A stretch of DNA of 64,000 nt. Origin: a virus (taxonomy: Duplodnaviria > Caudoviricetes). Positions 15,562 to 43,590 of this stretch are shown piece after piece. Every line of letters starts with the position of its first letter. Within the stretch, counting starts at the first letter, position 1. The position numbers and the translations under genes are program-made. Below the pieces are notes generated by a model. The model was given only the letters and a program-made list of their open reading frames with translations, was not told where the DNA came from and ran no database searches. The DNA lies in IMG/VR virus record IMGVR_UViG_3300030330_005983, positions 38,199 through 102,198 of that record, one strand, 5' to 3'.

Positions 15562-15565
15562 TTTT

Positions 15566-16510
15566 ATGATGACTAAACACGGATACGAAGACGTAAGCGT
15601 TAAAGATATTAGAGAAGAGCTTATTTCTCTGGGCGTGGAGGACCAAGAGATTTTATCTCAAAGCAAAAAGCCTCTTGTTCAGCTATTGATTGAAACTAAA
15701 GAGAAAAAAGCAAATGAATTGTTTGAATTTGATAGCGAAGAGGAAGATATTTTATCTGCTGTAGACACTGACGCCCTATCTAGCTCTTTAGAGCTTGTTC
15801 AGCCTTCTTTTAATACTGAAAAATGGTCTGAGTGGGTTATGTCTCAGTTTGCGGACGATGAGCTAGAAAATGGGGCTCCGACTTGTGATGGTCTTCGTAG
15901 GGTTGCAGAAGATGTGATTGGGCCGATAGCTAAAGTAGAGGTTATAAAAAATGATACTCCAACCGTGTCAAATAAAGGGAACGCGACAGTCGTTGTTGGA
16001 GTGACAATTGAGCCTGTGTTGCTGGACAGTCACCCAAGGCATGGGTCTTATATATATGTTGAAGACTTGGCTGATGCAAATAGATTAAATACTCCGGAAG
16101 AAATATTTAAGCACCCTTCCGCAACTGCTGGAACTAGAGCAGAGTCAAGAGTTTACAGAAAGATGCTTAGACTAAGAAAGGTTCTGACAGCAGAGGAGTT
16201 GGCTTCTAATGAAAGCACGTTGGAGGAAGAATGGTCTCCGTCTACTCCTATTACAGAGCAGCAAATAACTGTCATAGAGATGTTATGCAAGAGAACAAAT
16301 CTAAATGTTTTAGAATTTATAAATTGCGGAGATTTGAAATATGTTTGCATAGAGCAGGTTTCTGAACAGTCTGCGCAAAAGATGCTTCAGCATTTAAATA
16401 GAATACAAAGAAAAGATGCTCCTAGACCAGATGGGGTTGGGGTGTATGATGAAAACTGGAAGGTTAAAAACGATGACACAAGAGAAGAAAATTTTAGCAA
16501 AAGAGTATAG
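15566..16510 (+). CDS. Putative Rad52/Sak-like single-strand annealing protein
   Basis: A beta-rich core followed by HPSATAGTRAESRVYRKML (A.TRA..R..R signature). C-terminal ITEQQ...SAQKML helical domain. Sits next to an SSB-like gene. Confidence 0.5.
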   Translation: MMTKHGYEDVSVKDIREELISLGVEDQEILSQSKKPLVQLLIETKEKKANELFEFDSEEEDILSAVDTDALSSSLELVQPSFNTEKWSEWVMSQFADDELENGAPTCDGLRRVAEDVIGPIAKVEVIKNDTPTVSNKGNATVVVGVTIEPVLLDSHPRHGSYIYVEDLADANRLNTPEEIFKHPSATAGTRAESRVYRKMLRLRKVLTAEELASNESTLEEEWSPSTPITEQQITVIEMLCKRTNLNVLEFINCGDLKYVCIEQVSEQSAQKMLQHLNRIQRKDAPRPDGVGVYDENWKVKNDDTREENFSKRV

Positions 16511-27057: not shown

Positions 27058-27061
27058 TTAA

Positions 27062-30000
27062 TTAAACCCCTTCTCCGCTTTGAGGTATACTTACGTCTTG
27101 CTCAAATCCAGAAACAAACAAATTTAAGTCCCCCTGCGCTAAAAACTGTTTTGTGAAATTTCTATAATCTAAGTCAAATTGTTGTTCCATTGCATTTACG
27201 CTGCACACTTTATTTGACACAACAAGCTCATCTATTAAAAACTCTTCTTGTTGTTTCGGCTCTAAGCTTATGTTTAATCCAAGATTAGAGTAGGGAACCG
27301 AATCAGACCCTCTTTGTAAGAGGCCTCCGACTTTAAATTTTATATCATCTGTATCAGTTTTTACTTCGTATCCATCCCATTTTTGAGATACGTCAGTGAT
27401 GGGCTTAATTTCAGGCATATATCCAGACTGCCCTGGATGCCCTTTTGCTGGAGAGGCAACTCTAACAAATGATTGATATAGCTCTGTATCTACCCAGTAA
27501 TTTATAAAATACCATCTATCGTCGTCAAATGGAATCATTAAGCCTGGAAGGTGTTCTGGGGTTAATTCTCCATCGTCATTGGTTTTCCCAATTCTTCCCA
27601 TTCTTCCTCCTGCTGTAGTGTTTACAAAAGGAATGAGTCCGCCAAAAGCAGAAAGCTCGCCTTGCAATTTATTTTCAGAATTAGGCTTGAGAAAATCTTT
27701 AAGAGAATTGAAAGGAGTGTCTCCGCTCGCTTTAACGTTTGAATTATGACCGGCATAATAAATTGACCACTGACCAGATGTTGCCGTGGTACTCCCTGCA
27801 AAACCAATCTCGCAGTTTCCTAATACTCCTCTAATACCAAGGGACCCGACTGGGGGGACGTATCCAGGTGCTGGGCCTTTTCTTTTTATCCAAAAAGATG
27901 TGGAAACACCTCTTCTTGCCGGAGTAAAGTTTCCAGCAGAATCAAGATGTCCGTCCTTGGGCGTAATTCTATGTTGGTCGTTGATAGATGGAGAACCAGA
28001 CTGTACCAATACGGTTCCATAATAAGGCGTTGATAAATCGCCTTTAAATCTTGATACTCCAGAGCCGGTAAGCGATGATGCTGGAAATCTATCGCTAGTT
28101 TGAAAAAATCCAGATTCAGGGGTATAAGGGCCAGTAAACGAGCCCCCAACTTTGCTACGCCATCCACTTGCATATAATTTAAATCCATAATCCTGAGAAT
28201 TATCATTTGTATTATTATCAAATTTATATAAAGAGCCGTCTGTACAATTTCTTTCAGAGCCAGCAAAAAGAAGGGCTTCTGATTTACTTGGTTTAAAATC
28301 AGAACTATCAACAAGTTCGTTTCTGAAAAATGAAACTGAATCGGGAGCTGTAATTCCACTAAAGCCTTGAGTATTTAGTCCAATTTTATTTGTATTTTCT
28401 AAGTCTGTATCTAAAAAGAACGAGTCTTCTGTTCTGGCTCGACCTCGAGAATCAGGCAGTCTCGTTGAGGCAGATATGTCTCCGGTATTGATTAATCCTT
28501 TCAGGTGCAATGTAAAATGTTCTTTAACACCGCTAGCAAAAACAATTAATTCATCACCCAAAATTACTCTGGGGTCTTTACCTTCAATATATAAAAGACC
28601 TCTTCTTTTTAAAGTAAAATTACCTATGTTCAACGGGGCAGTATTACTTTTTGGTATAGGAGCGTTTACAAACAAAGTTGAAAAAGAACTAGAGGAGTCT
28701 TTGATATTTGGTATGCTTAAATCAATTTCTTTTTGCGGCCCTCTACCAGAAATAAACATTGGGTAAAGACGACTAGCAAATTCGTCATTTATAAAAAATA
28801 GTCCAAAATTATTAATTGTTGCGTGAGGTTTAATTGATAAAGAAACAAGCTCTTTAAACTTTGTCCCCTCTACAAATAAGTTATTTTCGGATTGTGATTT
28901 TATTAGGCCTCTTGTGTGCAGAGGTATGCCTGAAGAGTCTACAAAAACTCCACCCTCGATAAATAACGGATTAACGCCACTTGCTTTTGGAGGGGAGAAC
29001 ATTGTAAGATTAATCTTATTGTCTAAAAGATTTGGCCCAGTGATAAACAAAGGCACGCCTTGAGGAAAGCCGCCAAATTCATATGCCCCAACATCGTACT
29101 CCTCAGTGCCAGGTCCAGATGCGAATGGCCTTGGCATAAGTCTTATGTCAGAAAGAACTGAGTCTATAGTTACTCCGCCGTTTATAGCTCTAGAATTTTT
29201 TCTTAATCTAAAGTCTGCTGTAGAAGAGACAGAAATTAAACCGCCAGAAGAATTTATTGATATTGTCTTGGTGGGGTTTTTGAATAGGGATGATGATGCT
29301 TGGTCAAACTGAACAGCAAGAACATCTGAAGTGTCTAGGACGCTGAAGTCCGTAGATATATTATTGCGAAAGTCTATAAAGCCATTTCCACCTGAAGAAA
29401 AAGAAAAGTCTGACCCATCAGAATCCGCTCCAATGCAATTAAATATTTGAACATCTGCCCCGCCATAAAATCCAGGAAGGGCCGTGTTGTGTACTCTGTA
29501 ACAAGAATTTTTATGTCCATATGCAGTGCAGTTATGACATTGTATTCCGGGTTTACCTCCGGCCATGTCTGAGCCGCCCAGCTCAAATCCAATATCCTGA
29601 TGTGTGGTTCCTATTGCAAGGCAATTTTTAAAAATATTTCCGGAGCTTGAAGTCGTTCCAACGCTAGATTTTGCCTTGAAGCAAAAATCGTTTTTTGAAG
29701 TTGCCCAACAATTTTCAACCGTCATATTTGACGCTGTGTCTATATCCATATGAAAGCCTCGAGTGCTCCCAAGACCATCAACCTTAGCATGGCTAACAGC
29801 TATGGTATTAACTTCTGTGCTGTCTTCTCCTGGATATATAATTGGACCGGTTGTTATGTTGCCGTTGTGAAGTTCTCCTGAAGAGGCAAAAATTCTTGGG
29901 TAGCCAGAGGGTGTCGGTGTAGACGACCAACCAGATAAGGTAAATGTACCAAGATTAAAGCCAGAAAAACACTCAGCCCATTGATATGGGTTGACCTTGT

Positions 30001-30097
30001 CGTCTGCATAATCTTCCCACGCTTGAATCGTGGTAAAATCACCTGTTCCCAGTGGGTGGCTTGAAGCCCTAATTGTTTTTATTCTTGGTCTAGCCAA
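27062..30097 (-). CDS. Tail fibre/appendage protein: beta-helix-like N-domain, repetitive shaft, LamG-like C-domain
   Basis: The N-terminus is paralogous to 43591..45117 and has NC-repeat ladders plus YDVGAYE. About 14 (L/M)(F/H/Y)(I/V)xG-like repeats follow. TSFWIK, DDRWYFI and IDELVV are LamG-like motifs. Confidence 0.6.
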   Translation of the reverse strand: MARPRIKTIRASSHPLGTGDFTTIQAWEDYADDKVNPYQWAECFSGFNLGTFTLSGWSSTPTPSGYPRIFASSGELHNGNITTGPIIYPGEDSTEVNTIAVSHAKVDGLGSTRGFHMDIDTASNMTVENCWATSKNDFCFKAKSSVGTTSSSGNIFKNCLAIGTTHQDIGFELGGSDMAGGKPGIQCHNCTAYGHKNSCYRVHNTALPGFYGGADVQIFNCIGADSDGSDFSFSSGGNGFIDFRNNISTDFSVLDTSDVLAVQFDQASSSLFKNPTKTISINSSGGLISVSSTADFRLRKNSRAINGGVTIDSVLSDIRLMPRPFASGPGTEEYDVGAYEFGGFPQGVPLFITGPNLLDNKINLTMFSPPKASGVNPLFIEGGVFVDSSGIPLHTRGLIKSQSENNLFVEGTKFKELVSLSIKPHATINNFGLFFINDEFASRLYPMFISGRGPQKEIDLSIPNIKDSSSSFSTLFVNAPIPKSNTAPLNIGNFTLKRRGLLYIEGKDPRVILGDELIVFASGVKEHFTLHLKGLINTGDISASTRLPDSRGRARTEDSFFLDTDLENTNKIGLNTQGFSGITAPDSVSFFRNELVDSSDFKPSKSEALLFAGSERNCTDGSLYKFDNNTNDNSQDYGFKLYASGWRSKVGGSFTGPYTPESGFFQTSDRFPASSLTGSGVSRFKGDLSTPYYGTVLVQSGSPSINDQHRITPKDGHLDSAGNFTPARRGVSTSFWIKRKGPAPGYVPPVGSLGIRGVLGNCEIGFAGSTTATSGQWSIYYAGHNSNVKASGDTPFNSLKDFLKPNSENKLQGELSAFGGLIPFVNTTAGGRMGRIGKTNDDGELTPEHLPGLMIPFDDDRWYFINYWVDTELYQSFVRVASPAKGHPGQSGYMPEIKPITDVSQKWDGYEVKTDTDDIKFKVGGLLQRGSDSVPYSNLGLNISLEPKQQEEFLIDELVVSNKVCSVNAMEQQFDLDYRNFTKQFLAQGDLNLFVSGFEQDVSIPQSGEGV

Positions 30098-30112: not shown

Positions 30113-33100
30113 TTACGCTGGAGTATCAACTTTTTCCGCTATTCTTGTCAGTTCCCTTTGTATTTCTTCAATAGTAGCGGATTTAACCGGTCCTTCCAGA
30201 CTATCTAGTCCCGTCACATTTACTTGAACAGCATCAAGTCCGCTTATTTGCATTTGTATGCCATCGCCAAAGCTTGTTGTAAAATTATTCAAAGAATCAG
30301 TAAGAGCTGTAATTTTTTCTGATGAAGAAAAATTCGACAAAGCATTTGTTAAAGAAGATATAGACGAACCGTCCCCGCCATCTGCCTGCTGCTTGCTCTC
30401 AAAAACTGCAACTAAACGCTCAACTCCACTTGCTGTTCTTTCTGCAACGCCTATAGCTTGAGTTGATTCCTGTGGTGCGGCAACCTGAAACGGAGCATCA
30501 ATCCCTGGGCTAATTGCTGTAGAGCTTGTTGCTCCTCCAAGACGTATCCCCGCTCCGGGAATTCCGTTATATATATTCGTGCTAGCCAAATCTACTGGTG
30601 GAATCGGATTGGGCTTGTCCGGCGTAGATGTGGTTGGAATTTTTTGTGTTTGAACGTTTTGTTTTTGTGTTTCTAACCTGCCTTCTCTATCTGTCAGCCC
30701 TTTAAGTTTTGCATTGACAGAATCCAGTCGAGATTCAAAAACGTCCCAGCCATCAGTCTTTTTTAACCCTTCATTAAGAGACCTAGCCTTTTGTTCTATG
30801 TCTGAAATATCAATATCGCCTCTTATTATGCTATTTTGTAAGCCTCTGTCGATATTAGCCTCGTCAAGTCTTTGACGCTCATCTAATATTCTTGTGCCTG
30901 CAGCGTCTTTTGCTCCACTAAAAATTGATTCAAATGCGGGTGCCATTTTCCCTATCATGTCCGACACATCGCCAAAATCTGTGTCAAAATAATCAGCATC
31001 AAAGTCAGTCAGGCTGTTAATGGCGACGGCTAATTTACTAAGCTCTTCAGGACTAAAATCAAGATTTTCCTGCTCACCAACTTGCTTAAATACTCTTTGT
31101 GATATTCTTGCTCGCTCATCCCTTCCGGCAATATTGTCTTCAACAGCAATGTTGCTAGCGTTTATTTCTTGGAAAATTTGACTGAGAGCCCTTCGCATTG
31201 GGCTGTTTATTGCGGCATCCATTTCCGCTCTAGTTGAGTTCGACAATCCCGGAACATCTGAACCAACACCGTGGCTTCGCGAGCGAATTTTTTTAGCCTC
31301 TGCTCCCCCAAATCCAGCACTCGTAATTCTATCAAGCCTGTGTAACTCTTTTGCCGACCTTCTAATTTCGTCAAAGCTAGAGGCGGCGCCTACAACTGCC
31401 TCTGCTTCCTTTCTGCCTCCAATTCCCATAGACGCAAGTTGGCCTCTTGTCGTTATTTTGTCTTGAGCCCGAACCTGTTCTTTTTGTGCGGTCTCTTTCT
31501 CTGCTTGTACTCGCTCTTGAGCTTGCGCGACTATGGCTTCCCTAATTGACCTTGTTCCTTCTACTATTGCGTTTTTAACTTCAACGTCTGTTGTCTCAAT
31601 CGTCTTCTCAAAAACCTCTTTTATTTTTTCTGCGGCTTGCCTCTGAACATTCATAGCCTCAAGTATCTTTTTCTCAAGTTCTTTCTCCCCCTTGCCTTTT
31701 TCCATACGTTTTTCCACTAAAACATCAATTTGTTTATCAGTTAACTTAGCCGCTGCGCTATTAGGAGGCGCCGCTCGAAGTTCTGCTTTTATCTGTTTCT
31801 TAGTTTGACGTTTTATAATTTCGTCAGCGTCAACCATAATTTTTTTCCCATCTCCTTGCTCCGCCTCCTTCTCAAAATCTCTGACTTTTATTCCAGCCCC
31901 CGCAAATTCTCTAAGTTGTGCCAGTCCACCTTGCATCATCTGCTCACCCTGAGGACCAAGTCTGGCTATCTCTTGAGGAAGCATGCCTCTTTGAAGCAGG
32001 TTAGCCCCTCTCATGCCTGTTGCAAAGTTTTGTCTTTGCTCTTTAGTTCCAAAAGCAATGTCTGTCAGCTTTGATTGAGTATACTCTCTTCTTTTTTGCT
32101 CTTCTCCTAGTTGCTTTTGTAAAACCGAAAGTGTTGTAGTTGATTCAGCAAGATTCGAGAGGCCAGCTCTAAGCCTTTGACCCTCTTGGCCTAGAGTATT
32201 CAGGCTATTAGTTGCGGCAAGATGTGCGGAGCTTCCAACTTCTAACTCTTTTATATATTCTCTTTGAGCTGCAATCTGTGCTTCATTTGCTTGAATTAAA
32301 TCACCAAGCTCTTGGGGGTCCATTGGATTATTAAGATTTGCACCATAACCCAAGAAATCCGTTCCAATAATAGCTCGTTGCTCTTCTTCAAATCTTCTCG
32401 CTGCTTCCTGTCGAGCTTCCTGGTCTGTTCTTGCGGCTACTGCATTTCCCGCTACATCTCTACCAAACTGTTGTTCAGCGTCATCCAATTGGTTTTGCTT
32501 CTGAAGTAATCGCTGCCTAGCTTGAGTGTAGGCCTCTTCAAGGTCATTTCTTTTCTGTAGCATAGAAAGAAGATTCTCTTGAGACTGAACTATTGCGTCA
32601 CCTATTTCTTGCAATGCTTGCAAAACCTGCGGCCCAACATCACCTCTTATTTTTTCAGCAACAGCTCTAGAATCGCCTATAATTTCATCTCTTGCAGTTC
32701 CCTCTCCTTTTTGACGGCCTGTTGTCATTGTTCCTACAGCAGTAACAACCGAATTAGCAATGGTTCCGGTAAAACCCTTTGATTGTAAAGATTTTTTAAC
32801 TGCATCAACCAACTTAATATCGCTGTCCATTCCTGGGCCAACTGCCTTTGCGGCATCAAATAATACTCCTGGTAATTCTTGAGCAAGCCGGGCTTGTTGT
32901 GCTGCCTGTTGTCTTACATTTTCATCACTACTTGCCTGTCTTATTGCCTGTGAAAGCATGGCGGGGTCAACTCTTTCTCCCTCAGCCGCTCTTCCTAATA
33001 TGTTGCCAGATTGTCTCGTGCCTCCAAAAGTTGCAGAAATATCTCCTCCTAACGCAGCATTAACTATTCCGCTTACCCTGTCTGCAAATTCAGACGTTAT

Positions 33101-36100
33101 GTCTGCGGCCCTAAGTATAGCGTCTCTAAAAGAGTTTATTTCAGAGATAAAGTCTCTTTGTGCGGCAAACGCTTCGGCGGCAGCGGCTTGGGCTTCCCTT
33201 AGTCTTCTAGCTACATCAATCTGCCTCTTATATTCTCCCCTTAACTCCTCGTAAGGAACACCCGTCAATCTACTAAGAATCTCAATTGCTTCTCGACCCT
33301 TTCCTCCCATCATTGACTCAAAGTCTGAAATGCTCTCTGAGCCCTTTGCCATTTCTCCAGTCATTTTTTGAAGCTCTGGAACTAATCTTTTCATTTCCTG
33401 TTCCATTTTTTCCATTTGCTCAAGGTCGCCAGCACTAGCCATATTATCCATAGCTCTATTTACATCGTTAACTATACTTCCAACGACAGAGGACGTAGCT
33501 CCTTGGCGTTCCAGTTTTTTCATGTTTTTGTCTATGCTTTCTAAATGTCGAGCCTGCCTTCCCCTGTTTATTGCATCTACAACTTCTTTATTTGACCCGA
33601 AAATTCCAGCAACCAGACCGCCTATTGCTCCAACTACACTACCAATTAGCCCACCAAGAAGAGTTCCTATGACAGGTATAAAGCTTCCAATCGCTGCTCC
33701 TGCAACAGCGCCTCCAGCCATTCCTGTTCCAGTGGCGCTAATTACTTTGCCTTTTGTAAACTTTGCTTGTGCTGCGTTTTCGTCTGCAGTGTTTTTAGCT
33801 CTTTCTGCCGATTCTACGGCTTCTTTCTTTAATTTCTCTCCAAAAGACCTTATTGCTACTCCAGCAGAAGCGAGTGCGCTTACGACTGCTAGGGCGCCTG
33901 CGGAAGTTCTAGTCAAAGCTGCTCCAAAGGCTTTAACGTTGCCTCTGACTTTACCCATTCCTAAAGTATTTACGTTTCTATTGCTAAGGGCGCTAAAAGT
34001 TCTTCCAAATGACGCTCTGCTAAATCTTTTTCCGCCTGCAGCGCCAGGAAGGCCCTCAAGAAGCTTTTGCGCACCAAGGCTTTCAAAAGCAATCTTAACA
34101 GTAAGAAGAGTTCCAAGAAAACCGGTGAGTCCTGACACGAGATTTGAAAAAGTCTTGTTAGTCGTTCCAACGCTTGCGGCAAGCTGTTCTAGAATATTTG
34201 GAAGAACAATAGCCGCGGCAGTAAGCTTTTCAAACCCTCGACCAGAATCGCCTCCACTAGCCCTTCCACCGCGTCGAAATTTTTTAACTATTCCGCCAGA
34301 AGCAAAGCCTTGAGCTTGACCTTTATTTATTTTGTCTAATGCCCCATAACCAATTCTTTGAGCAGATTTTTTATTTACTACAAATTCGCCAGGAGTAAGA
34401 AGTGCGGGAACAGTATCAGAGCCAGATATTCCACCTCCCGAAGCTCTCCTTGCTACTTTCAGGCGATTTTGAATAGAGTCTTTATTGACATTGGCTATAT
34501 CCCTCCACTTTGTTCGTTTTTGGTTGTTAAATTCTCTTGTGACTTTTGTTCCTTTTAAGCCTGCCTTCATCTCCTGAAGGCTTCTTTTAACTTCTCCTGT
34601 TTTTAATTTTTCTGCGCCAGGACCAAACAGCTTGCCCCATGCGCTTCGCTGATTTTTGGTTATTTCAGGAATGTCAAACGCCGCTTTGTCACCTCCCATA
34701 GCTGTTCCCGTTAAAGCAGTTAGAACGCCTTCATAAATGAAACCCGCTACTGAGCTAATAACATTGGGGTCTGATTCAGTGGCCGCCTTAGCCGCGGCTA
34801 TATTATTATCATCTACAGAAACCCCAGCCTTTTTGAAAGTGGCATTCTTTTTTAATTTCGAAACCGCCCTTCCTACTCCACTACTAGCCCCTTTCGCCGC
34901 AGCCCTATCGATTTGTGTCCCCATAACTTCTTTCAGGTCCCCTGGAGAAGGAGCGTAGCTCATGAAAGTTTGTTTATTCATGGACCCCTGTAGTCTTGTT
35001 GCGGCGCGTTGTCTTGAAGAAAGTTTATGTTTTTTTGCGGTTGACCTTTTCCAGTAATCTATAAAAGCTGGGTTTGTAATATCGAAGCTTTTAATTCCGG
35101 GATATCTGATTGCAGTATCAGCTCCGCCTTTAGTTTTTGCCCCATCTCGTAAATGGATTCCTCCGATATGAGTTCGGGGAGTCATGTTAATTGGAAGGCC
35201 ACCAGGGAATCCTCTAAGGGGAAGTTCGTCTGCGTCTGCCTTTTTCTTTCCTCTTTTCATAGCAGCTCTGTCGTTTGCTCTTTTTTGAGCGACGGTAAGC
35301 GGCTTACTTTTTCTGGTCTGACCATAAAGAAGAGCGTGTCCATCGGGTAGGCCTCTGCCTGAAGAAATCTTACCGCCCATTGCTTTCCTGGCTTTAATAG
35401 ATTTAACGCCAGGAATTTTAGATGCAGCCAAAACATTGGCATCATCATCATCAAGAAATGTTATGTTTCCATATTGTTTTTTAAGACGGTTAAGAACTTG
35501 AGCTTTCTTTTGAGACGTATCTCCTGGTCCCGGACTTCCTCCAACACCAATAATGTCTTTTGCGGTGACCCCAATTTTACTCATAAACCCGCTAATGCCC
35601 CTCCTAGTGGAACTATCACCGGGTCTAGCTGTGACCACGAATATATCGTGTCCCCTTGACGCTCTTGTTTTTGCCATAGACGCTATTTTTGTAGCTGTTG
35701 CACTCTTGACAAAAGACTCCCCTCTTTTGCCTCTAAAATCAACGTATGGGTCTTCGGCGCCCTCTCTGACAACGGCATCGCTAACGGCTAATGTGTCGTC
35801 AAAATCAAAAGCGTAAGCGCGCTTTGATTTAGATATTCCTCGTCTTTTTTTGCCACCCCTGTTAAGTCTTTGTAAATTTTCAGCCCCATATTTTTCAACA
35901 GAGCTTTTTCTAATAACAAACTCGCCCGGCTCAAGCATAGCAGGAACGGTGTCACCAGTGCCTGTTCCAGGAACAATACCTCCAGTAGCAAATCTTCTCC
36001 TTCCGCTTCTTCCGCCCATCGCTCCTGAAGATATAATTTTTTGGTTGGATGAAGATAGACGGTTAATTGGTGGTATTAAAGAGTTTACCGCTGCTGTAAG

Positions 36101-37660
36101 TTTTGTGATAGCTGTTGTATTAGTTGTTAGGGCTTGCACTTGTTTTGCTGCTGACGCAGCTTGCGCTTGTCCAGTTAACTGTCCTGCGGCCCCTCTCCCG
36201 GCACCTCTAGCTCCTCCTCCACCAAGACCGCCCGCGAAACCACTAACAAATTGAGAGCCAAGTTGAAAAGTTTTGAAAGCGGCCAAACCAGCAATTAAGG
36301 GAAGAACGGGCTTTATAGCATCTCCAACCTTAATCATTGCTGAGGCGATAGACAGAGCTGTTTTGGCAAAAGCTTGAAATGCAGTGGTCCCAGCTATCTC
36401 TCTAAAAAGGGCTAAAAATTGTTCCCTAACTTTTACAGCCTGTACAGCCAAACTCTGTTGAGCTGTTACTGCGTCTTTAGCTAAGGAGCCTTGCCCAGCT
36501 ATAGCAACATTTAATGCTCTTTGTGCTGTTCCAAATTGTTGAATTAATGGGATTACTTTTGAAACCTGCCTAAATCCACCAAGCTCTTCAATGATTTGCT
36601 GGAATCTAGGGTCTGTGGTTTCAAGAGTGCTTAATGCTTTGTTTAGTCTTTTAATAGCTTCAAAAGGACCAACGAAGTTTCCTTGAAGGTTTTGAAGCTC
36701 AACTCCAGCCTGTCGCAAGAATTCGATTGTTTTTGGTCTTTGGATTCTTGTGAAGATGGTTCTAAAACCAGTTGCAATTGTTTCCGCACTTTCACGGGTT
36801 GTTGCTCTAACGCTAGTAAACAGAGCGAGAAGCTCTTCTAGATTGCCTCCAGCAGCTTGAAACGCACCACCAGCTCTTCTAATAGCAAAAATCAAGTCTT
36901 GAGATTCTACAGCGAACTGCCCAGCAAGCGCATTTATTGAACCTAGCTTTCCTCCTAGCTGGTCTGCGGTAACGCCAAACTGACGCATGATAGCAATGGC
37001 ACCCTCAGCGGTATTTGCCATGTCTTTAAAGGTAGGCGCTAAAGAACTCTGCGCTAGTGTTTTCAGGGCTGTTGTAACGTCTTTGGCAGCCAAGCCTGTT
37101 TGCGCCAACGTTCTAGAAACATCTATTAACTCAGATGAAGCAACGCCCATGCCAGAGGCAAGTCTGCTGATTTCCTTTTCTAGGAAACCTAAAGATTGTA
37201 AGGTCTTGCCAGTAACCTGAGCAACCTTTACCATTTGCCTTTCAAAGTTTATCGCTTCAGAAACACCAGTTTTTAAAGCTGATGTGAAACTAATTAGAAC
37301 TCCACCACCAATACTAAATGCGGCAAATCTTTTTGTGGCTAATGCAATCTGGTGACCAAAGTTTTGAGCTGACGTTCCAGCCTCTTTTAAAGACGAAGAG
37401 GTTTTGTTGACATTGCTTGATGTTTTAGAGGTAGTGGAATTAAGTTGAGAAAGCGTCTTGTTTGTTTTGGCTACTTGAGCAGAAATGTTATTGAGTGATT
37501 TCTGCATGTTCTGCAAGGCCTGTAGGCCAGACTTGCTAACATTAAGATTAACATTAGCGTTGAGTCCGCCTAACTGCCTCTGCAGCCTGCTGACAACCTG
37601 CCTAACATTTCCAGGACCCTGCAGTTGAAGCTGGGCGACTATATTAAATTTTTGAGCCAT
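30113..37660 (-). CDS. Tail tape measure protein (2515 aa) with inserted globular cargo domains
   Basis: TP901-type core (FERQMVKV, LAQTG, TTRESAETIATGFRTIFTR), hydrophobic Gly/Ala segments, long coiled coils, two GG..G..DTVPA.L.PGEFV motifs and an embedded HAD domain. Confidence 0.9.
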   Translation of the reverse strand: MAQKFNIVAQLQLQGPGNVRQVVSRLQRQLGGLNANVNLNVSKSGLQALQNMQKSLNNISAQVAKTNKTLSQLNSTTSKTSSNVNKTSSSLKEAGTSAQNFGHQIALATKRFAAFSIGGGVLISFTSALKTGVSEAINFERQMVKVAQVTGKTLQSLGFLEKEISRLASGMGVASSELIDVSRTLAQTGLAAKDVTTALKTLAQSSLAPTFKDMANTAEGAIAIMRQFGVTADQLGGKLGSINALAGQFAVESQDLIFAIRRAGGAFQAAGGNLEELLALFTSVRATTRESAETIATGFRTIFTRIQRPKTIEFLRQAGVELQNLQGNFVGPFEAIKRLNKALSTLETTDPRFQQIIEELGGFRQVSKVIPLIQQFGTAQRALNVAIAGQGSLAKDAVTAQQSLAVQAVKVREQFLALFREIAGTTAFQAFAKTALSIASAMIKVGDAIKPVLPLIAGLAAFKTFQLGSQFVSGFAGGLGGGGARGAGRGAAGQLTGQAQAASAAKQVQALTTNTTAITKLTAAVNSLIPPINRLSSSNQKIISSGAMGGRSGRRRFATGGIVPGTGTGDTVPAMLEPGEFVIRKSSVEKYGAENLQRLNRGGKKRRGISKSKRAYAFDFDDTLAVSDAVVREGAEDPYVDFRGKRGESFVKSATATKIASMAKTRASRGHDIFVVTARPGDSSTRRGISGFMSKIGVTAKDIIGVGGSPGPGDTSQKKAQVLNRLKKQYGNITFLDDDDANVLAASKIPGVKSIKARKAMGGKISSGRGLPDGHALLYGQTRKSKPLTVAQKRANDRAAMKRGKKKADADELPLRGFPGGLPINMTPRTHIGGIHLRDGAKTKGGADTAIRYPGIKSFDITNPAFIDYWKRSTAKKHKLSSRQRAATRLQGSMNKQTFMSYAPSPGDLKEVMGTQIDRAAAKGASSGVGRAVSKLKKNATFKKAGVSVDDNNIAAAKAATESDPNVISSVAGFIYEGVLTALTGTAMGGDKAAFDIPEITKNQRSAWGKLFGPGAEKLKTGEVKRSLQEMKAGLKGTKVTREFNNQKRTKWRDIANVNKDSIQNRLKVARRASGGGISGSDTVPALLTPGEFVVNKKSAQRIGYGALDKINKGQAQGFASGGIVKKFRRGGRASGGDSGRGFEKLTAAAIVLPNILEQLAASVGTTNKTFSNLVSGLTGFLGTLLTVKIAFESLGAQKLLEGLPGAAGGKRFSRASFGRTFSALSNRNVNTLGMGKVRGNVKAFGAALTRTSAGALAVVSALASAGVAIRSFGEKLKKEAVESAERAKNTADENAAQAKFTKGKVISATGTGMAGGAVAGAAIGSFIPVIGTLLGGLIGSVVGAIGGLVAGIFGSNKEVVDAINRGRQARHLESIDKNMKKLERQGATSSVVGSIVNDVNRAMDNMASAGDLEQMEKMEQEMKRLVPELQKMTGEMAKGSESISDFESMMGGKGREAIEILSRLTGVPYEELRGEYKRQIDVARRLREAQAAAAEAFAAQRDFISEINSFRDAILRAADITSEFADRVSGIVNAALGGDISATFGGTRQSGNILGRAAEGERVDPAMLSQAIRQASSDENVRQQAAQQARLAQELPGVLFDAAKAVGPGMDSDIKLVDAVKKSLQSKGFTGTIANSVVTAVGTMTTGRQKGEGTARDEIIGDSRAVAEKIRGDVGPQVLQALQEIGDAIVQSQENLLSMLQKRNDLEEAYTQARQRLLQKQNQLDDAEQQFGRDVAGNAVAARTDQEARQEAARRFEEEQRAIIGTDFLGYGANLNNPMDPQELGDLIQANEAQIAAQREYIKELEVGSSAHLAATNSLNTLGQEGQRLRAGLSNLAESTTTLSVLQKQLGEEQKRREYTQSKLTDIAFGTKEQRQNFATGMRGANLLQRGMLPQEIARLGPQGEQMMQGGLAQLREFAGAGIKVRDFEKEAEQGDGKKIMVDADEIIKRQTKKQIKAELRAAPPNSAAAKLTDKQIDVLVEKRMEKGKGEKELEKKILEAMNVQRQAAEKIKEVFEKTIETTDVEVKNAIVEGTRSIREAIVAQAQERVQAEKETAQKEQVRAQDKITTRGQLASMGIGGRKEAEAVVGAASSFDEIRRSAKELHRLDRITSAGFGGAEAKKIRSRSHGVGSDVPGLSNSTRAEMDAAINSPMRRALSQIFQEINASNIAVEDNIAGRDERARISQRVFKQVGEQENLDFSPEELSKLAVAINSLTDFDADYFDTDFGDVSDMIGKMAPAFESIFSGAKDAAGTRILDERQRLDEANIDRGLQNSIIRGDIDISDIEQKARSLNEGLKKTDGWDVFESRLDSVNAKLKGLTDREGRLETQKQNVQTQKIPTTSTPDKPNPIPPVDLASTNIYNGIPGAGIRLGGATSSTAISPGIDAPFQVAAPQESTQAIGVAERTASGVERLVAVFESKQQADGGDGSSISSLTNALSNFSSSEKITALTDSLNNFTTSFGDGIQMQISGLDAVQVNVTGLDSLEGPVKSATIEEIQRELTRIAEKVDTPA

Positions 37661-37736: not shown

Positions 37737-38630
37737 TTAAACCGCTTCTTGTTCTGTCTTTTCCGAATCAGATTTTTTGGGCCTGCCTCTTCTTTTTGTT
37801 GTCTTTTTGGGTGCTTCTTTTAGTTGGGGGTTTTCTTTGCTAAAAACTTCATTTCCGTCTTCATCAAGGAATGGTGAAAATGCCACGATAGGATTGCCCT
37901 CTTCGTCAACTCTTTCTCCGTCTATGTTTACATACTCGCCATCTTCATTAACAAACCTTCCCTCTGAGTCGATGAGCTTTCCATCAAAATCAATAAGTTG
38001 CCCTTCACTATTGACTAGCCTGTTCTCATCGTCCGTAAATTCGTACTCGTTCAGGAATTTATTCTCAGGAAGATTTTTTTCATAGTTTTTATCAAGTCCA
38101 TAGTAAATACCGGCAAAAACTTCAGCCGCTTTTACCGCGACACCGTCTTCTGACGACAAATATTTATCTATGTTTTCATAAACTGGTTCTCCAGTATCAT
38201 TATACACCAAACATCCTACTAACAATGCATTAAATCTTGCGTTTTCAGCTTGTCCTTGAGCGGTGTTGACGTCTAAAGAGTTTTTCTCGGCTATTAATCC
38301 TTGAAGCGCCATTCTAAGCGTTCTTATTTCAAGGGCAACTTTTTTTGCCTCTGAAAGTTTAATTCCTCCGGCTTTTAAACTTTTTGATTTGTTAGATATT
38401 TCTTCAACCAATCGGTTTTGTGTCTTTTCTTTTTGTTCGTCCCATATTCCTTGACTAATCATGTATTGTTCTAGTTTTTCTCTTAATAGAGCGCCAGAAG
38501 AAAGGGCCTTACTAAACACCCTATTATACTCCATGGTAGCGTCTTCATTATTTTGAAAAGTGGGTTGAAGGATAGCGTATTTTTCATCTTTTCCGTCAAC
38601 AGAAAAAGTTGTTTTTTTATTTTTTGCCAT
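37737..38630 (-). CDS. Putative tail assembly chaperone with acidic 7-residue repeats
   Basis: Immediately upstream of the tape measure. About seven (V/I)(N/D)x(E/D)Gxx repeats. Confidence 0.45.
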   Translation of the reverse strand: MAKNKKTTFSVDGKDEKYAILQPTFQNNEDATMEYNRVFSKALSSGALLREKLEQYMISQGIWDEQKEKTQNRLVEEISNKSKSLKAGGIKLSEAKKVALEIRTLRMALQGLIAEKNSLDVNTAQGQAENARFNALLVGCLVYNDTGEPVYENIDKYLSSEDGVAVKAAEVFAGIYYGLDKNYEKNLPENKFLNEYEFTDDENRLVNSEGQLIDFDGKLIDSEGRFVNEDGEYVNIDGERVDEEGNPIVAFSPFLDEDGNEVFSKENPQLKEAPKKTTKRRGRPKKSDSEKTEQEAV

Positions 38631-38649
38631 AATAAAATTCTCCTCTATT

Positions 38650-39027
38650 TTATGTAAGGTGAGTGTTCATTGTAAGTGTATATCTGTCCCAACTGACAGA
38701 ATAGTTTCCAATCTCATTGACAGCGGCTCTTAGTTGTGTATTACCGTTGTCTAATATTTCTGCTCTAATTTCATCCCAAACCTCTCGCATCTCAATTTCA
38801 TCCTGAGTAAGTTCCTCTTCACTTTTTCCGTGACCCCACAGAAATCCAAAATGATTTTCACAAGAGGATATGGCCCCTATAAAAGAGGTTTTCATTTTTG
38901 TTGATACGATATTGGAGAGCCTCTTTTTTGAGCGCTCTTCGTACTCTTTAGATTTTGCCTCTTTCTGTTTATGTGCAGCGCTTGCTATTTGATAATGCGA
39001 AAGAGTTTCTTTTTTATTGTCTCCCAT
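38650..39027 (-). CDS. Hypothetical tail-module protein
   Basis: 125-aa ORF with an SD, in the operon. Confidence 0.5.
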   Translation of the reverse strand: MGDNKKETLSHYQIASAAHKQKEAKSKEYEERSKKRLSNIVSTKMKTSFIGAISSCENHFGFLWGHGKSEEELTQDEIEMREVWDEIRAEILDNGNTQLRAAVNEIGNYSVSWDRYTLTMNTHLT

Positions 39028-39054
39028 GTTTTTATTCCTTTTTTTAATTTTGTT

Positions 39055-40107
39055 CTACTTTCTGGCGTGTTGTGCGAAAGAGTCCATGGCCTGTCTTCTT
39101 AGTTCCAATTGAGCGTCTAGGGTATGCTCAACAGAAACTCCTTTTTTACTCTTGTCTATCTGCTTCTGTCTATTTTTGATTATAGCTTTTGAATCGCCGG
39201 TATTCATAGCATATATTTTCGCCGCATCCTGTTGATTATCAGCGAACAAATAAACTTCATCCCCCTTCTGCGCAGCTTTGTTATTTGCATACTGCTCCTT
39301 CTTTTCTTTTTCTCTTTTCTTGTGTTGGAAAATCAACCAGCCGTCAAGCAAATCATCGTCCTGGATTACCTCATCGGCGGGACAATCTGGGCTTTCATGG
39401 ATGCTGTCGTATATTCTTGACCAAGATATTATCATTCTTTGCTCGTCTGATAAAGAAGATGCCGGGATACCAAACACGCCAATTTCGCTTTTTGCACAAT
39501 TCCATATATTGGTCCAAGGGTCTTTTCTTGAAAGCTCCCTAATTTTATCTTCGTCTATGATTTGAGAGCTATATGAGTTAAATAAACTTTGAATTAATAC
39601 AGATTCAGCCTTGTCATAATCATTATTTTTCCATATCAAATTTTCATCTAGGTCTCTAGCAGAGGAACAAATCCTATAAGTATGTTTGTAATTATCGGCC
39701 ATACCCTCAGCGGTTTGCTGACGAAATACATTTCTAGCCATAGTCAAATTAATAATCTCTTTTTTGATTTTTTTTATCCTAGCTTTTAAATTATCTCTGC
39801 TCTTAAAAGAAATAAACGCAGTATAAAGTTGCAGTTTTGATTCTTCCATAATTCCTGGAATTGCTTTTATCCTGTTTTCATTTTCTTCACTCCATAAACC
39901 ATCTTCTATCATTTTTTGAATCATTTCGCTCTCAGATATCACCCCTTTTGAAATCGCTTCAAATAACTTTTCATTGTATATCTGTTCAGATATATACTTA
40001 TTTCTAGGAGTAAGGTTGTCTATAACGTAAGTTACTCCGTGTATTTTACAAAAAGTTACGCCGCTAAGAATTTTGCTTACAAGGCGATTTCTTTCATTCC
40101 TATCCAT
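39055..40107 (-). CDS. Putative tail assembly chaperone-like protein
   Basis: Helical protein between the tube and tape measure genes, with YDSIHESPDCP.DEVI.DDDLLDGW. Confidence 0.45.
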   Translation of the reverse strand: MDRNERNRLVSKILSGVTFCKIHGVTYVIDNLTPRNKYISEQIYNEKLFEAISKGVISESEMIQKMIEDGLWSEENENRIKAIPGIMEESKLQLYTAFISFKSRDNLKARIKKIKKEIINLTMARNVFRQQTAEGMADNYKHTYRICSSARDLDENLIWKNNDYDKAESVLIQSLFNSYSSQIIDEDKIRELSRKDPWTNIWNCAKSEIGVFGIPASSLSDEQRMIISWSRIYDSIHESPDCPADEVIQDDDLLDGWLIFQHKKREKEKKEQYANNKAAQKGDEVYLFADNQQDAAKIYAMNTGDSKAIIKNRQKQIDKSKKGVSVEHTLDAQLELRRQAMDSFAQHARK

Positions 40108-40345
40108 TTTGTCCTTCTAATTCATTAATGCGTTTTTTTAATTCAGCATTTTCTGAAGTGAGGTGGGTGGCTTGAACCTGCATGGCAGCAATTATTTCTG
40201 AGTAATATTTTTCAGTTACTTGCTTTATACCTGAATTTTCAATAACCAAACGTCCAATAATTTGACAAACTGAGTCGTATGAAATTTCATTTTGAGAGTT
40301 AGAGTCTTTTTTTTCGGAAGAGAAATCCGATGTAGAATTTTCCAT
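40100..40345 (-). CDS. Small coiled-coil protein
   Basis: 81 aa with a C-terminal heptad stretch. Overlaps the downstream start. Confidence 0.5.
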   Translation of the reverse strand: MENSTSDFSSEKKDSNSQNEISYDSVCQIIGRLVIENSGIKQVTEKYYSEIIAAMQVQATHLTSENAELKKRINELEGQNG

Positions 40346-40371
40346 ATTATTTTAATCCTTCTTTTGTATCC

Positions 40372-40414
40372 AAAAAATATAAAGGGGAGAGGGGTAAGCC
40401 CCTCCCCTTTTTTA
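40372..40414 (-). terminator. Intrinsic terminator after the tail tube gene
   Basis: Minus strand GGGGAGGGG-CTTA-CCCCTCTCC stem (one G-U) followed by CCTTTATATTTTTT. Confidence 0.75.
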
Positions 40415-40420
40415 ACTAAA

Positions 40421-41854
40421 TTAAACGCTTGCGTGAGCTGTTCCAGCGTCGCCGTGTCTACCATCCCTAAGGGTAAACTTGCTTGTTTGAAAGTGCTCTT
40501 TAATACCTTGATAGTATGCGGTAGTCGCCGCAGTATCGGAACCATTGGAGCCGGTGTTCCTATCTTTATCTCCAGTAGCACCACTATAAGCAACAGCCAA
40601 CGGGTCTTGTGGATGGAAGACTGTGAAGTCATTAAAGTTTTGATAACTGTAAGTGATTTCTTCATTTCCACCACCAGCGTCACCTCCGGTAACATTAACT
40701 GAGGACAACTTGTTTTTCTTGCCCATGTCAACCAACAGACCCTCTCGAAGATGCAATCTAATAGTCTCATTTTGAATATTAGATGTGTTTGACGGGTCAA
40801 TGAAGCCTTCTTCAGTAACGTTAATTAAGTCGCCAGAAGTTGAAATACACGTAATTTCGCAAGTTGCTTCCGTGGGGAACGGAACGAACCTGTGATATCG
40901 ACCTCTTCGGCCTAACTCAAAAATATCTTCTCTTCCGAAGTCGGTAGAGCATGTGATACTTTGAACGTGAACTTTAAAGCTTCCGTTGTCTCTTTCAACA
41001 GTACCGCTAGTGCTAACACCAGGAATCTGCCTGGGAAGAACCGTACCCAGTCCAGAAACAGCGCCGTTAACATCACGATACCCTCTTGTGTGCCTGTCGC
41101 CTCCTGCGGTGTCATTTCCAGGATAAACGTATAGAACATCCTCTCTTCTGTTTACACCGCCTGAACCCTGGGTGAATGCTAACGGGTCCTCTTCTCGAGT
41201 GATAAAGTCTGTCGCAGACCATAAGGCCATAGCAGGCACGCCATTGGCGATTTCGGTTGCATGAAAAACTTTATCTTGGCCAACCAAAGAAACACTCTCT
41301 GTGGCGTAACCGTCGATACCAACAGTGTAGCTAACAGAATTCACAAACATTCCAGACATCATAACTGAAATTTCTGGCTGGTCTTTGTACCAAGCAGCGC
41401 CATCAGAGCCGCCATTGTCAATAACGTTTGCGGCAATCTCGCTTGTATCTTTATAAATATTTAAAGCAAAATCGCACTGAGCTTTAGAACGACCAATCAA
41501 AGTGGCTGCAGTAGCCTTGTTGTCTGCGTCGGTGGTTGATAGCTCTCCGTCTCCATTAATAGATGTCGCCAAAACGTAAGCTGGGCAGTATCCATCAAGA
41601 ACTTTCTCAATATCTACGGAGATATCAGGAATACCTTCAATATTTTCATAGATTTGAAGCATTCCAAGTTCAAATGTTTGCTCCAAATTAAAAGTGGTTG
41701 TAATGCCAACAGACTGAAGTCCATGAAGCTGCCTGAATTTACCCTTATCGGCTTGGGCAATGTCAGTAGGGTCATTGACACCCTTGACTTGGGCAGAGCC
41801 AACTGGACCCATTCCGGCCTTTTTTGCGGCATAAAAAATTCTTTTGTTTGCCAT
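40421..41854 (-). CDS. Major tail tube protein with two tandem tube-like domains
   Basis: Has its own promoter motif and terminator, suggesting high expression. Internal repeat LQSVGITTTFNLEQTFELG / VQSITCSTDFGREDIFELG. Confidence 0.7.
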   Translation of the reverse strand: MANKRIFYAAKKAGMGPVGSAQVKGVNDPTDIAQADKGKFRQLHGLQSVGITTTFNLEQTFELGMLQIYENIEGIPDISVDIEKVLDGYCPAYVLATSINGDGELSTTDADNKATAATLIGRSKAQCDFALNIYKDTSEIAANVIDNGGSDGAAWYKDQPEISVMMSGMFVNSVSYTVGIDGYATESVSLVGQDKVFHATEIANGVPAMALWSATDFITREEDPLAFTQGSGGVNRREDVLYVYPGNDTAGGDRHTRGYRDVNGAVSGLGTVLPRQIPGVSTSGTVERDNGSFKVHVQSITCSTDFGREDIFELGRRGRYHRFVPFPTEATCEITCISTSGDLINVTEEGFIDPSNTSNIQNETIRLHLREGLLVDMGKKNKLSSVNVTGGDAGGGNEEITYSYQNFNDFTVFHPQDPLAVAYSGATGDKDRNTGSNGSDTAATTAYYQGIKEHFQTSKFTLRDGRHGDAGTAHASV

Positions 41855-41920
41855 TATTTTTCTCTCCTGTTTCTATATAGAATCTCTGCTTGCTACCCAG
41901 AGACTAGCGCTAGTTAACAT

Positions 41921-41932
41921 ATTATACACCAA
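41921..41932 (-). promoter_or_regulatory. Putative late promoter (TTGGTGTATAAT)
   Basis: Intergenic, about 67 nt upstream of the tail tube ATG. Confidence 0.65.
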
Positions 41933-41934
41933 AT

Positions 41935-42930
41935 TTATATATCGGACGATATTAATGAAAAAGTTGCCCTTACTGTGCTTCTGTGAAGCCAGCTATTTAC
42001 TGGCGGCATATCTGTGCATTCCATCTTGTCAATTCTGGCTTGATTATACCTAAAGCCCCCTTCTCCAGTTGGAGATATTAAGTCTGGATACATTTTAGCA
42101 TTTTTGACTGGATATCCTAGCCTATTCAGTTGAAGTGGGTACTTTTTGTTTTCTTTCATCATAGCTCTATTGATAAGATATATAATTTTCTCATTTTGAT
42201 TCAAAAGTATGTCTCTTAAATTGTTTTTCTCAAACTCATTATCAGAGAATATATGGAATAAAATATCGTTATAAACTATCTGCCCCCCGCCAATAGCCCA
42301 TCCTTGATTTTTGCCTCCTTTGGATAATTCTAACGCAACAACAGGCAGTTGAAGCCTTCTCTTGCCAAGTTGGTTTCTTGAGCCAGAACTAGAAATTAAA
42401 TAAGAATCTAAATCCTCAATATCATAAGAGTCATACATAAGCTCTTGAACAAATTTTTCGGATGCTAAAGTTATGCCTACGGTTCTATGGCTAAAATTAG
42501 CCTCTACTCTTCTTCTTATTGGGACAGGGTAGTCAAATAATATTCTTCCATTTGGATAGTCAACATAGTGAGAGTACGTTGCATCGCCAGAACCATAAAA
42601 ATAACCATCTACCCAAACTCCACTTACATGTATTGGTTTTGTGTCGTTGTATGTAAATCCAGACTCCCAAACCCAATCATTTCTAAATCCTTCCCAAACT
42701 TGTCCTTGCTCATAGTTTGGGTCATCAGACATCCTAAGTCTATATCTAGAACTTGAGTCGGAAAATGAGCCTGAAGCTGCGGGGCTTCTAGATATATTTT
42801 GAAATGCACCTACTTGTAAAAAAGACCAAGATAAAAAATCTTGAACTCCTAGCAAGAGATTGTTGCTAATATTATCTTTCTGGATAGATGTAACGCCTTT
42901 AAATTTTGCGGGGTCTTGAATAAATGCCAT
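41935..42930 (-). CDS. Putative tail terminator/completion protein
   Basis: Directly upstream of the tail tube gene. LPVVALE...IGGG....DILFHIFS pattern. Confidence 0.5.
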   Translation of the reverse strand: MAFIQDPAKFKGVTSIQKDNISNNLLLGVQDFLSWSFLQVGAFQNISRSPAASGSFSDSSSRYRLRMSDDPNYEQGQVWEGFRNDWVWESGFTYNDTKPIHVSGVWVDGYFYGSGDATYSHYVDYPNGRILFDYPVPIRRRVEANFSHRTVGITLASEKFVQELMYDSYDIEDLDSYLISSSGSRNQLGKRRLQLPVVALELSKGGKNQGWAIGGGQIVYNDILFHIFSDNEFEKNNLRDILLNQNEKIIYLINRAMMKENKKYPLQLNRLGYPVKNAKMYPDLISPTGEGGFRYNQARIDKMECTDMPPVNSWLHRSTVRATFSLISSDI

Positions 42931-42932
42931 TT

Positions 42933-43589
42933 TTATCCCCTTCCACCTAAGGCAGAAATAAAAAGTTGTGTTAAGTCGTTCTGCAATTGAGGAAGAACAG
43001 AATCAATAGCCCGAGTAATAAAGTTATTGTCCTCTGAGCCAGAGTGTTCTGGCGGAACCCTCCATCCACGACCCTTAACCATTATTTTGTCTCCTGTTCG
43101 GGACCTTTTTGGAAATCCAGCTTTAACTTCGAAGCTTCTAATAATAACAGCATCGCCTAAAGTTAATAACCATTTAAGCCAAGGTAAGCTTTGACCTTTT
43201 TCTGTTTCTTGAAGCCCATCTTCTGAGCCCGATGTTACAGTTTGAAGGTCTGAAGGAGCTGCTTCAATTGTAAATTTAGCCACTATTTTGTCTCCAGATA
43301 TTCTTGGGCTTTCTACTTTTAATTTTACAATATTAGATACGGCTGATGCTATTCCATCAGGGTTTACAGATTCTAAACCAAACTCCTCTCTTAAATTTCC
43401 GCTTTGCAAAGAGTCCATTGTTGAAGATTGCAAAATAGCGTTATACACTTGATTTTTAACTTCCATTTTTATTTTGTCAGTGCTTTTATTAAAGTTTTTT
43501 TTCATGTGTTTTTGAATAGCCATAAGTATATCTTTTTTAACTTTATCTTCATTAACCATTTTTAGAGAAAAGTTTAAAGAATTAGACAT
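42933..43589 (-). CDS. Putative neck/tail completion protein
   Basis: Neck-region position. LPWLKWLL and a C-terminal NNFITRAI resemble HK97 gp10-type ends. Confidence 0.45.
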   Translation of the reverse strand: MSNSLNFSLKMVNEDKVKKDILMAIQKHMKKNFNKSTDKIKMEVKNQVYNAILQSSTMDSLQSGNLREEFGLESVNPDGIASAVSNIVKLKVESPRISGDKIVAKFTIEAAPSDLQTVTSGSEDGLQETEKGQSLPWLKWLLTLGDAVIIRSFEVKAGFPKRSRTGDKIMVKGRGWRVPPEHSGSEDNNFITRAIDSVLPQLQNDLTQLFISALGGRG

Positions 43590-43590
43590 A

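Follow-up and report, generated by a model that had tools for sequence, protein, structure and literature searches.

A repeated peptide module partitions a phage tape measure protein and frames predicted enzyme domains

The protein considered here, P0001, is a tape measure protein (TMP) encoded in a 64,000-nucleotide stretch of phage DNA from IMG/VR record IMGVR_UViG_3300030330_005983. This whole stretch, referred to as the window, represents bases 38199-102198 of the 102,198-base virus record, for which the CheckV completeness is 43%. P0001 carries two copies of a module of approximately 47 amino acids (aa), which bracket a predicted HAD-type phosphatase and a second conserved domain, termed domain B. 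The module is homologous to segments of the TMPs of phages lambda, JBD30 and Douge, the catalytic motifs of the phosphatase are intact, and in related TMPs the module is repeated and the slots between copies vary in content. On balance we favour an explanation in which this tail ruler, in the manner of a polyprotein, also delivers enzymes into the host. The module itself is not new to TMPs; its multiplication is new.

P0001 is assigned to the TP901-type TMPs on the basis of family matches. Residues 163-362 match PF10145, PhageMin_Tail, in Pfam with 85.1 bits against a cut-off of 33.2 (E 7.6e-24), and nine PHROG tape-measure families match the protein, the best with E 8.3e-27. Composition and hydropathy reveal the helix-rich ruler and membrane-type stretches of a TMP. 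The last hydrophobic stretch (aa 1313-1357) is a Gly-zipper hairpin and, in relatives, the Gly-zipper families PF20721, PF13488 and PF13441 match at the region equivalent to the hydrophobic stretches of P0001. The ruler part is weakly homologous (25-32%) to the long segments of relatives. PF09718, Tape_meas_lam_C, gives no match in P0001 at E values up to 1. The main parts of the gene are as follows.

30113..37660, minus strand: TMP gene (P0001), an open frame of 2,515 aa with PF10145 and PHROG matches
36575..37174, minus strand: PhageMin_Tail (TP901-type) core, aa 163-362, inside the conserved N-terminal part, aa 1-556 (Pfam)
33590..34141, minus strand: three hydrophobic membrane-type stretches, aa 1174-1192, 1252-1274 and 1313-1357 (Kyte-Doolittle scan)
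30113..33589, minus strand: helix-rich 'ruler' and C-terminal part, aa 1358-2515, without a third module copy (composition)

A profile of the module family returns two matches only in P0001.

35852..35992, minus strand: module copy 1, aa 557-603, FATGG-IVPGTGTG-DTVPAMLEPGEFVIRKSSVEKYGAENLQRLN-RGG (family profile, 73.5 bits)
34316..34456, minus strand: module copy 2, aa 1069-1115, RASGG at aa 1072-1076 plus DTVPALLTPGEFVVNKKSAQRIGYGALDKIN (family profile, 72.2 bits)

These agree with a preliminary description of the window, made from the sequence alone, which had placed two bracketing DTVPA copies at approximately 35860-35995 and 34320-34440. The DTVPA motifs themselves are located at aa 570 (window 35951-35953) and aa 1082 (34415-34417). 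The length then given for the insert, about 580 aa, applies to the span from the first FATGG to the last RASGG and not to the distance between module ends, which is 465 aa; the two Asp residues are 512 aa apart. The copies are identical at 19 of 47 positions, nearly all of them within the core DTVPA(M/L)L.PGEFV, and 483 module copies yield the near-invariant core DTVPAMLTPGEFV.

The module had been viewed as specific to cargo. This view does not hold, as the module is homologous to one present in single copy near the C-terminus of the TMPs of lambda, JBD30 and a Nitrincola phage. A search of PDB sequences with copy 1 returned TMPs, together with one ribosomal protein at chance level (E 0.95). 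The matches are to mycobacteriophage Douge gp16 at two sites, 964-1011 and 1412-1459 (E 2.6e-11), to JBD30 gp46 at 1019-1068 (E 0.0055) and to lambda gpH at 732-777 (E 0.01), and the family profile also recovers the lambda core at 754-777. The core thus matches the TMPs of solved phage structures, and the similarity is not due to chance. When aa 540-1145 were compared with 50,697 phage records by tblastn the module of about 40 aa alone was matched, in 27 records, and was found in the TMPs of Gordonia and Nitrincola phages. Over the module, Pfam reports no family in P0001, in 13 relatives, or in the Clawz, Nitrincola and lambda proteins. PF09718 does not cover the lambda module; the family spans gpH 627-701, upstream of it. 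A LysM-like reading was dropped because, on inspection, the spacing of conserved residues does not fit, and a match in a Ralstonia phage, unreadable in one frame and from an unverified record, was set aside. The T4-like cyanophage Synechococcus phage S-SM2 encodes (4993-7293) a 766-aa 'transmembrane protein' with one module copy at aa 334-380 (73.6 bits); its gene follows gp26 in the baseplate-hub module and precedes that of a transglycosylase-domain protein. Its presence in this cyanomyovirus indicates that the module is not restricted to non-contractile tails.

The first domain of the insert directly follows copy 1.

35351..35848, minus strand: HAD-type phosphatase, aa 605-770, with D619/D621/T623, T677, K719 and D737-D738 (conserved motifs)
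35372..35386, minus strand: KAMGG, aa 759-763, an A-x-G-G linker directly after HAD, with G762 and G763 invariant in 11 homologues

The predicted class of aa 605-770, a phosphatase of the HAD superfamily, is clear. All four HAD motifs (I DxDxT, II S/T, III K, IV DD) are present in P0001, the catalytic residues are invariant in 11 close homologues of 37-59% identity, and the motifs are conserved across 18 sequences, stand-alone proteins of 134-173 aa included. The stand-alone homologues align from first to last residue with the TMP domain and terminate just before the position of KAMGG. This end-to-end match makes the domain resemble a whole small gene inserted in frame. One stand-alone homologue, P0140, scores 27.2 bits with PF00702, above the cut-off for that family. 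Amongst PHROG families phrog_415, 'polynucleotide kinase', matches the domain (E 9.6e-5), and a HAD profile run against the PDB gives AphA as the best match (E 0.0018) and Pnkp1 with E 0.046.

Two regions separate the phosphatase from copy 2.

35051..35350, minus strand: basic, poorly conserved stretch, aa 771-870, between HAD and domain B (about 41% identity, in P0002, P0003 and P0004 only)
34457..35050, minus strand: domain B, aa 871-1068, with conserved G973, E977, D996, (D/E)1023, K1025 and K1039 (alignments)

Neither the basic stretch nor domain B has a match in Pfam, and a comparison of the insert with PDB sequences matched nothing. The core of domain B reads G973-x3-E977 ... F-D996-F-P ... 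(D/E)1023-x-K1025. In an alignment of 100 members G973 is retained in 99, E977 in 96, D996 in 98, an acidic residue at 1023 in all 100 and K1025 in 93. We take E..D..(D/E)xK to be the residue pattern of PD-(D/E)xK nucleases, and tentatively put domain B forward as a candidate nuclease of this type, probably metal-dependent. We abandoned the idea that the insert is an intein or a homing element, as Cys and His are almost absent and Pfam reports no Hint-type family.

Relatives were collected in two ways. A search with aa 540-1145 identified 1,676 relatives among 8,000 scored candidates and a search with the N-terminus alone identified 2,411 database clusters; in each case the best 120 were examined. 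The first set, of 130 giant relatives, is biased. Among the 120 TMPs chosen by N-terminus, 114 carry from two to six module copies (one copy in 6 proteins, two in 34, three in 47, four in 25, five in 7 and six in 1), and as many as seven copies per chain occur among the relatives. A common plan is apparent: an N-terminal part, copy 1, slot 1, copy 2, a long helix-rich segment, copy 3, further slots, a last copy and a C-terminal part of about 130 aa. Clustering of segments (E < 1e-5 and at least 50% of the longer partner) gave the following.

N-termini: 127 segments, 5 clusters, 122 segments in one
C-termini: 112 segments, 13 clusters
First slots (<900 aa): 118 segments, 27 clusters
Later slots (<900 aa): 143 segments, 113 clusters, 89 of them singletons

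Conserved termini and modules contrast with the hypervariable slots that follow the ruler. The variation of domain content between conserved flanks, which the preliminary description had proposed as a check, is therefore present. TMPs with N-termini 58-75% identical differ in what lies between copies 1 and 2. In P0117 neither domain is present, P0003 is longer here by some 280 residues, and in P0007 and P0010 the HAD domain is present but BLAST detects no domain B.

The suggestion of modular cassettes of cytoplasm-type enzymes stands in part. HAD is optional, being found with strict profiles in 14 of 114 TMPs of the set chosen by N-terminus, and relatives offer an ADP-ribosyltransferase (ART) and a J-domain. 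Domain B does not behave as swappable cargo; a region resembling it fills slot 1 in 95 of 113 proteins and it is the near-universal occupant of that slot. In the biased set of 130 there are 38 proteins with HAD, 43 with domain B and 10 with both, in the order HAD-B in 7 and B-HAD in 3. P0031 has HAD at 568-743 and, in the same slot, the ART at 1278-1442 (PF03496, E 1.1e-17), in which the R, STT and ExE-type motifs are intact; RFAQGG and copy 2 mark the end of the ART. In P0187, a TMP of 3,520 aa, a DnaJ-type J-domain with HPD occupies aa 2284-2418, after the third module copy. PF21724 and PF20721 were considered as slot cargo in relatives and rejected, being located in the ruler/Gly-zipper region instead. 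The Cys plus His content is near zero in every segment class of the 130 giant TMPs (medians 0-0.8%), which fits proteins that travel unfolded or extended.

Could the motifs be recombination points, as had also been suggested, acting mainly at the level of DNA in the exchange of cassettes? In most TMPs that have it, the HAD domain does adjoin a module copy, either following copy 1 or preceding copy 2, and slot content does differ among close relatives. The DNA of copies 1 and 2, however, is equal at 76 of 141 bases (54%), and 10 of the 19 residues identical between them are specified by different, synonymous codons. Furthermore each copy has its own variant, IRKSS in copy 1 and INKKSA in copy 2, seen also in the consensus of 13 relatives. 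That these variants are kept by position across proteins points to selection at the peptide level. What is conserved in the module is the peptide, and both copies are ancient. The closest relatives share 67-75% amino acid identity and are too diverged for breakpoints to be mapped. We judge DNA-level recombination highly improbable as the main role of these motifs.

A further explanation is that the inserts are neutral or selfish accretions, or length spacers, that play no part in infection, and the Gly-rich elements simply tolerant linkers. Most variable slots have no recognisable domain, the HAD domain matches a whole small gene end to end and it is held by a small fraction of relatives, all of which would suit such an origin. 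The catalytic residues of HAD are nevertheless invariant in homologues as distant as 37% identity, the tetrad of domain B is kept in 93-100 of 100 sequences, and the signature motifs of the ART and J-domain are intact. Conservation of all four sets of motifs indicates purifying selection on activity and makes neutral accretion quite improbable.

The preliminary description listed seven short boundary motifs of the form xxxGG. All seven are present in P0001 (GG at aa 560, 602, 762, 1075, 1122, 1131 and 1136), though the pattern is better given as A-x-G-G, to which five of the seven conform. GG alone is hardly enriched across the protein, with 34 occurrences against about 27 expected from a Gly content of 10.4%. 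There are 12 A.GG in P0001. In the 130 giant relatives A.GG occurs at 4.05 per 1000 aa as opposed to 1.11 by composition, a 3.6-fold excess, and 840 of the 1608 instances fall between -30 and +60 of a module core, in 11% of the total length. The motifs do lie, at sequence level, at the edges of the two domains. LNRGG ends copy 1 directly before HAD, KAMGG follows HAD and RASGG comes directly after domain B. A role as linkers is supported in relatives with HAD, for which GG is present no more than 35 aa upstream of the domain in 33 of 38, and between 12 aa before and 28 aa after its C-terminal end in 36 of 38. Beyond copy 2 there is a further element.

34250..34306, minus strand: doublet Gly linker, aa 1119-1137, FASGG-IVKKF-RRGG-RASGG (pattern count)

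The pattern GG-hh-x-[KRQ]-[FLM]-x2-3-GG is present 54 times in the 120 TMPs, compared with 0.3 for shuffled sequences, and 32 of the 54 fall just after a module, as does GGIVKKFRRGG after copy 2 here.

Comparisons with characterised phages inform on what the module and linkers might do. Lambda gpH loses a C-terminal peptide of about 14 kDa through a cut in a Gly-rich region to leave gpH* of about 78 kDa, and the 2025 Ur-lambda paper calls the cut site and the protease unknown (PMC12617516). The module matches in lambda, JBD30 and Douge fall within, or adjoin, the region of gpH cleavage. A cut at F733/A734 of gpH would, by computation, give fragments of 79.8 and 12.5 kDa, the larger being near the published mass of gpH*. 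In gpH we note that the module core is flanked by FATGG (733-737) and YATGG (778-782). Lambda, JBD30 and Douge resemble P0001 in having a homologous module, lambda in having [FY]ATGG on both sides of it and Douge in having two copies. Lambda and JBD30 differ in having a single copy, placed 70-130 aa before the C-terminus, and in carrying no enzyme.

In T5, the cut in pb2 falls after R1127, pb2C remains in the tip with release to the periplasm proposed, and the C-terminus of pb2* docks between hub subunits after opening, there being three docking sites per hub (PMC10038345). T5 pb2, of 1,219 aa, contains two A.GG, one of which, residues 1128-1131, lies directly after the R1127 cut. T5 pb2 is like P0001 in being a TMP with a hydrophobic stretch, an anchor of about 43 aa, a processing site and an enzyme part proposed for release in the envelope. 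It differs in having one site, near the C-terminus, and a muralytic part, whereas P0001 has two copies in its N-terminal half together with a phosphatase and a nuclease-like candidate domain.

Enzyme domains within TMPs have a precedent. The TMP of Gordonia phage Clawz has an SLT domain downstream of its last module, and that of mycobacteriophage TM4 reportedly has an embedded peptidoglycan hydrolase motif. Both are similar to P0001 in having an enzyme domain within a TMP delivered by ejection, and in Clawz module copies lie upstream of the SLT domain. Those domains are muralytic and act on the wall; in P0001 and relatives they are HAD, nuclease-like, ART or J-domain. T4 Alt is a separate head protein, an ADP-ribosyltransferase that is injected with the DNA and acts before phage gene expression. 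The ART of P0031, by contrast, belongs to the tail ruler itself. In polyvalent proteins several effector-type domains, ART and others, are joined in a giant polypeptide thought to enter with the DNA and be processed; these proteins are packaged in heads or transferred by conjugation and are processed by zincin-like peptidases, and the word 'tape' does not occur in that paper, Iyer et al. 2017 (PMC5512222). A similar joining of domains is seen in P0001 (HAD plus nuclease-like) and P0031 (HAD plus ART), and P0187 has its J-domain. Pfam reports no associated zincin-like peptidase in P0001 or 13 relatives, which sets them apart from polyvalent proteins. Embedded muralytic domains of TMPs, cleavage in T5 and lambda, and head-packaged or polyvalent effectors are already known. 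In the open-licence literature (PMC papers and bioRxiv) we found neither the repeated module nor TMPs with an ART, a HAD domain or a J-domain described.

Is the module cut, or does it serve a purely structural purpose? It may remain intact as a hook docking to the hub or tube, or as a chaperone or assembly site, with the tethered domains active at the envelope or in the periplasm and HAD an acid-phosphatase-type enzyme acting on envelope phosphates. AphA, the best solved relative of HAD, is a periplasmic acid phosphatase, so an envelope or periplasmic target is possible. Membrane-type stretches lie 60-240 aa past copy 2 and the known TMP enzymes, as in Clawz (SLT) and T5, are muralytic. An ART requires NAD+ and a J-domain requires DnaK. 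These domains of relatives need cytoplasmic partners and are cytoplasm-type activities, which favours the cytoplasm. For JBD30 residues 1022-1066 a hook has been predicted, made up of two helices and a hairpin, and it has been likened to the T5 pb2* anchor that sits between hub subunits (PMC11445458 and PMC10038345). The T5 hub, with its three docking sites, contrasts with up to seven copies per chain, and A.GG is placed exactly at the mapped T5 cut. We regard a solely structural module as unlikely.

Enzyme delivery by the ruler remains our preferred explanation, and might proceed as follows. P0001 would be the TMP of an uncultivated long-tailed phage, polyprotein-like in build, the two modules standing between the conserved TMP domain at the N-terminus and the part that holds the membrane-type stretches and the ruler. 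Judging from T5, lambda and JBD30, it would fill the tail tube and emerge before the DNA with its C-terminus leading. As the slot occupies the head-proximal third, its contents should leave last, beside the DNA end, and are the most likely to reach the cytoplasm. The modules and Gly linkers may act as flexible joints and as points of processing or docking, comparable to R1127/AEGG of T5 and the Gly-rich region of lambda gpH. The enzymes would be freed or exposed inside the infected cell, and the phosphatase and nuclease could then target the ends of nucleic acids or the defences of the host before phage genes are expressed. Cleavage, ejection and action in the cytoplasm are thus proposed steps.

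Several considerations, in addition to the AphA likeness, weigh against this proposal. With PF00702 the HAD domain of P0001 gives 15 bits, below the cut-off of 26.4. The nuclease reading of domain B derives from the residue pattern, and the spacing of 27 aa from D to (D/E)xK is long for the PD-(D/E)xK fold. A 19-sequence profile of domain B gave a single match in the PDB, at chance level (E 0.14), and searches of the ESM Atlas with domain B (299 aa) and with a core of 129 aa found nothing usable. Pfam identifies no peptidase family in P0001 or in 13 relatives. The module profile does not match T5 pb2, the segment around the cut included, so the T5 link is one of A.GG position; moreover, in T5 the anchor comes before the cut, whereas here the core comes after A.GG. 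In 13 multi-slot giants Pfam reports PF10145 (13 of 13) and TMP_N (one) and no domain in the variable slots, which suggests that most 'cargo' may be non-enzymatic. A comparison of the whole giants P0016, P0073 and P0002 with the PDB likewise gave no cargo homologue. Finally, folded globular domains, present in three copies, would have to pass along a narrow tube either unfolded or staggered.

A broader generalisation can be envisaged, possible but doubtful in our view, in which the module plus A-x-G-G constitutes a universal cut-and-dock unit of TMPs, including the vicinity of F733/A734 in lambda and R1127/AEGG in T5, that has been multiplied in the giant TMPs of marine phages to create a polyprotein from which effectors are released. 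The hypervariable distal effectors would then be released first, into the envelope, and the nuclease, phosphatase or ART would follow, beside the DNA end, into the cytoplasm.

TMPs are usually viewed as rulers and channel formers with, at most, a domain that degrades the wall. Here, in a large family (2,411 clusters), a repeated, strongly conserved module divides the ruler into parts that are conserved and slots that vary. Should the modules be processing sites, they would represent a new entry route by which pre-made effectors arrive with the DNA, of relevance to defence and counter-defence. A testable prediction for the cut site and mechanism of lambda gpH would follow, and the slot would offer a natural insertion point for engineered proteins delivered by phage. 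The hypervariable distal slots represent a pool of unannotated, probably host-interacting, domains.

The gene order around P0001 is compatible with a tail module, there being, upstream, a weak terminase match at 55181-57298 and a weak tube match at 40421-41854, both below the Pfam cut-off. Ten neighbouring tail-module genes, at 23369-30097 and 37737-45117 on the minus strand, matched no PHROG family, and ten neighbours compared with Pfam gave sub-threshold terminase, tube, AAA_13 and PP2C matches only. The absence of PHROG matches in all ten indicates a virion module very distant from those of cultured phages, and the source phage is deep-branching. The PP2C phosphatase match (E 0.0084, 16.2 bits against 20.3) is to a 350-aa open reading frame (ORF) at 39055-40107 on the minus strand, two genes upstream of the TMP gene, and is probably due to chance. 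A 1,770-aa ORF at 18039-23351, also on the minus strand, sits in the GC-richest part of the window (0.458). It has neither a Pfam nor a PHROG match and, judged by position, could encode a fibre or host-recognition protein.

A sugar-biosynthesis cluster occupies 561-16510 on the plus strand of the virus contig. It includes a NeuB sialic-acid-synthase type enzyme fused to SAF and a xylose-isomerase-like barrel (E 9.8e-80), and one protein each of the DHDPS/neuraminate-lyase and GDP-mannose-dehydratase/epimerase types. A sulfotransferase, a C-methyltransferase and a DegT aminotransferase are encoded there too. These assignments suggest that the phage encodes the synthesis of a nonulosonic-acid-type glycan.

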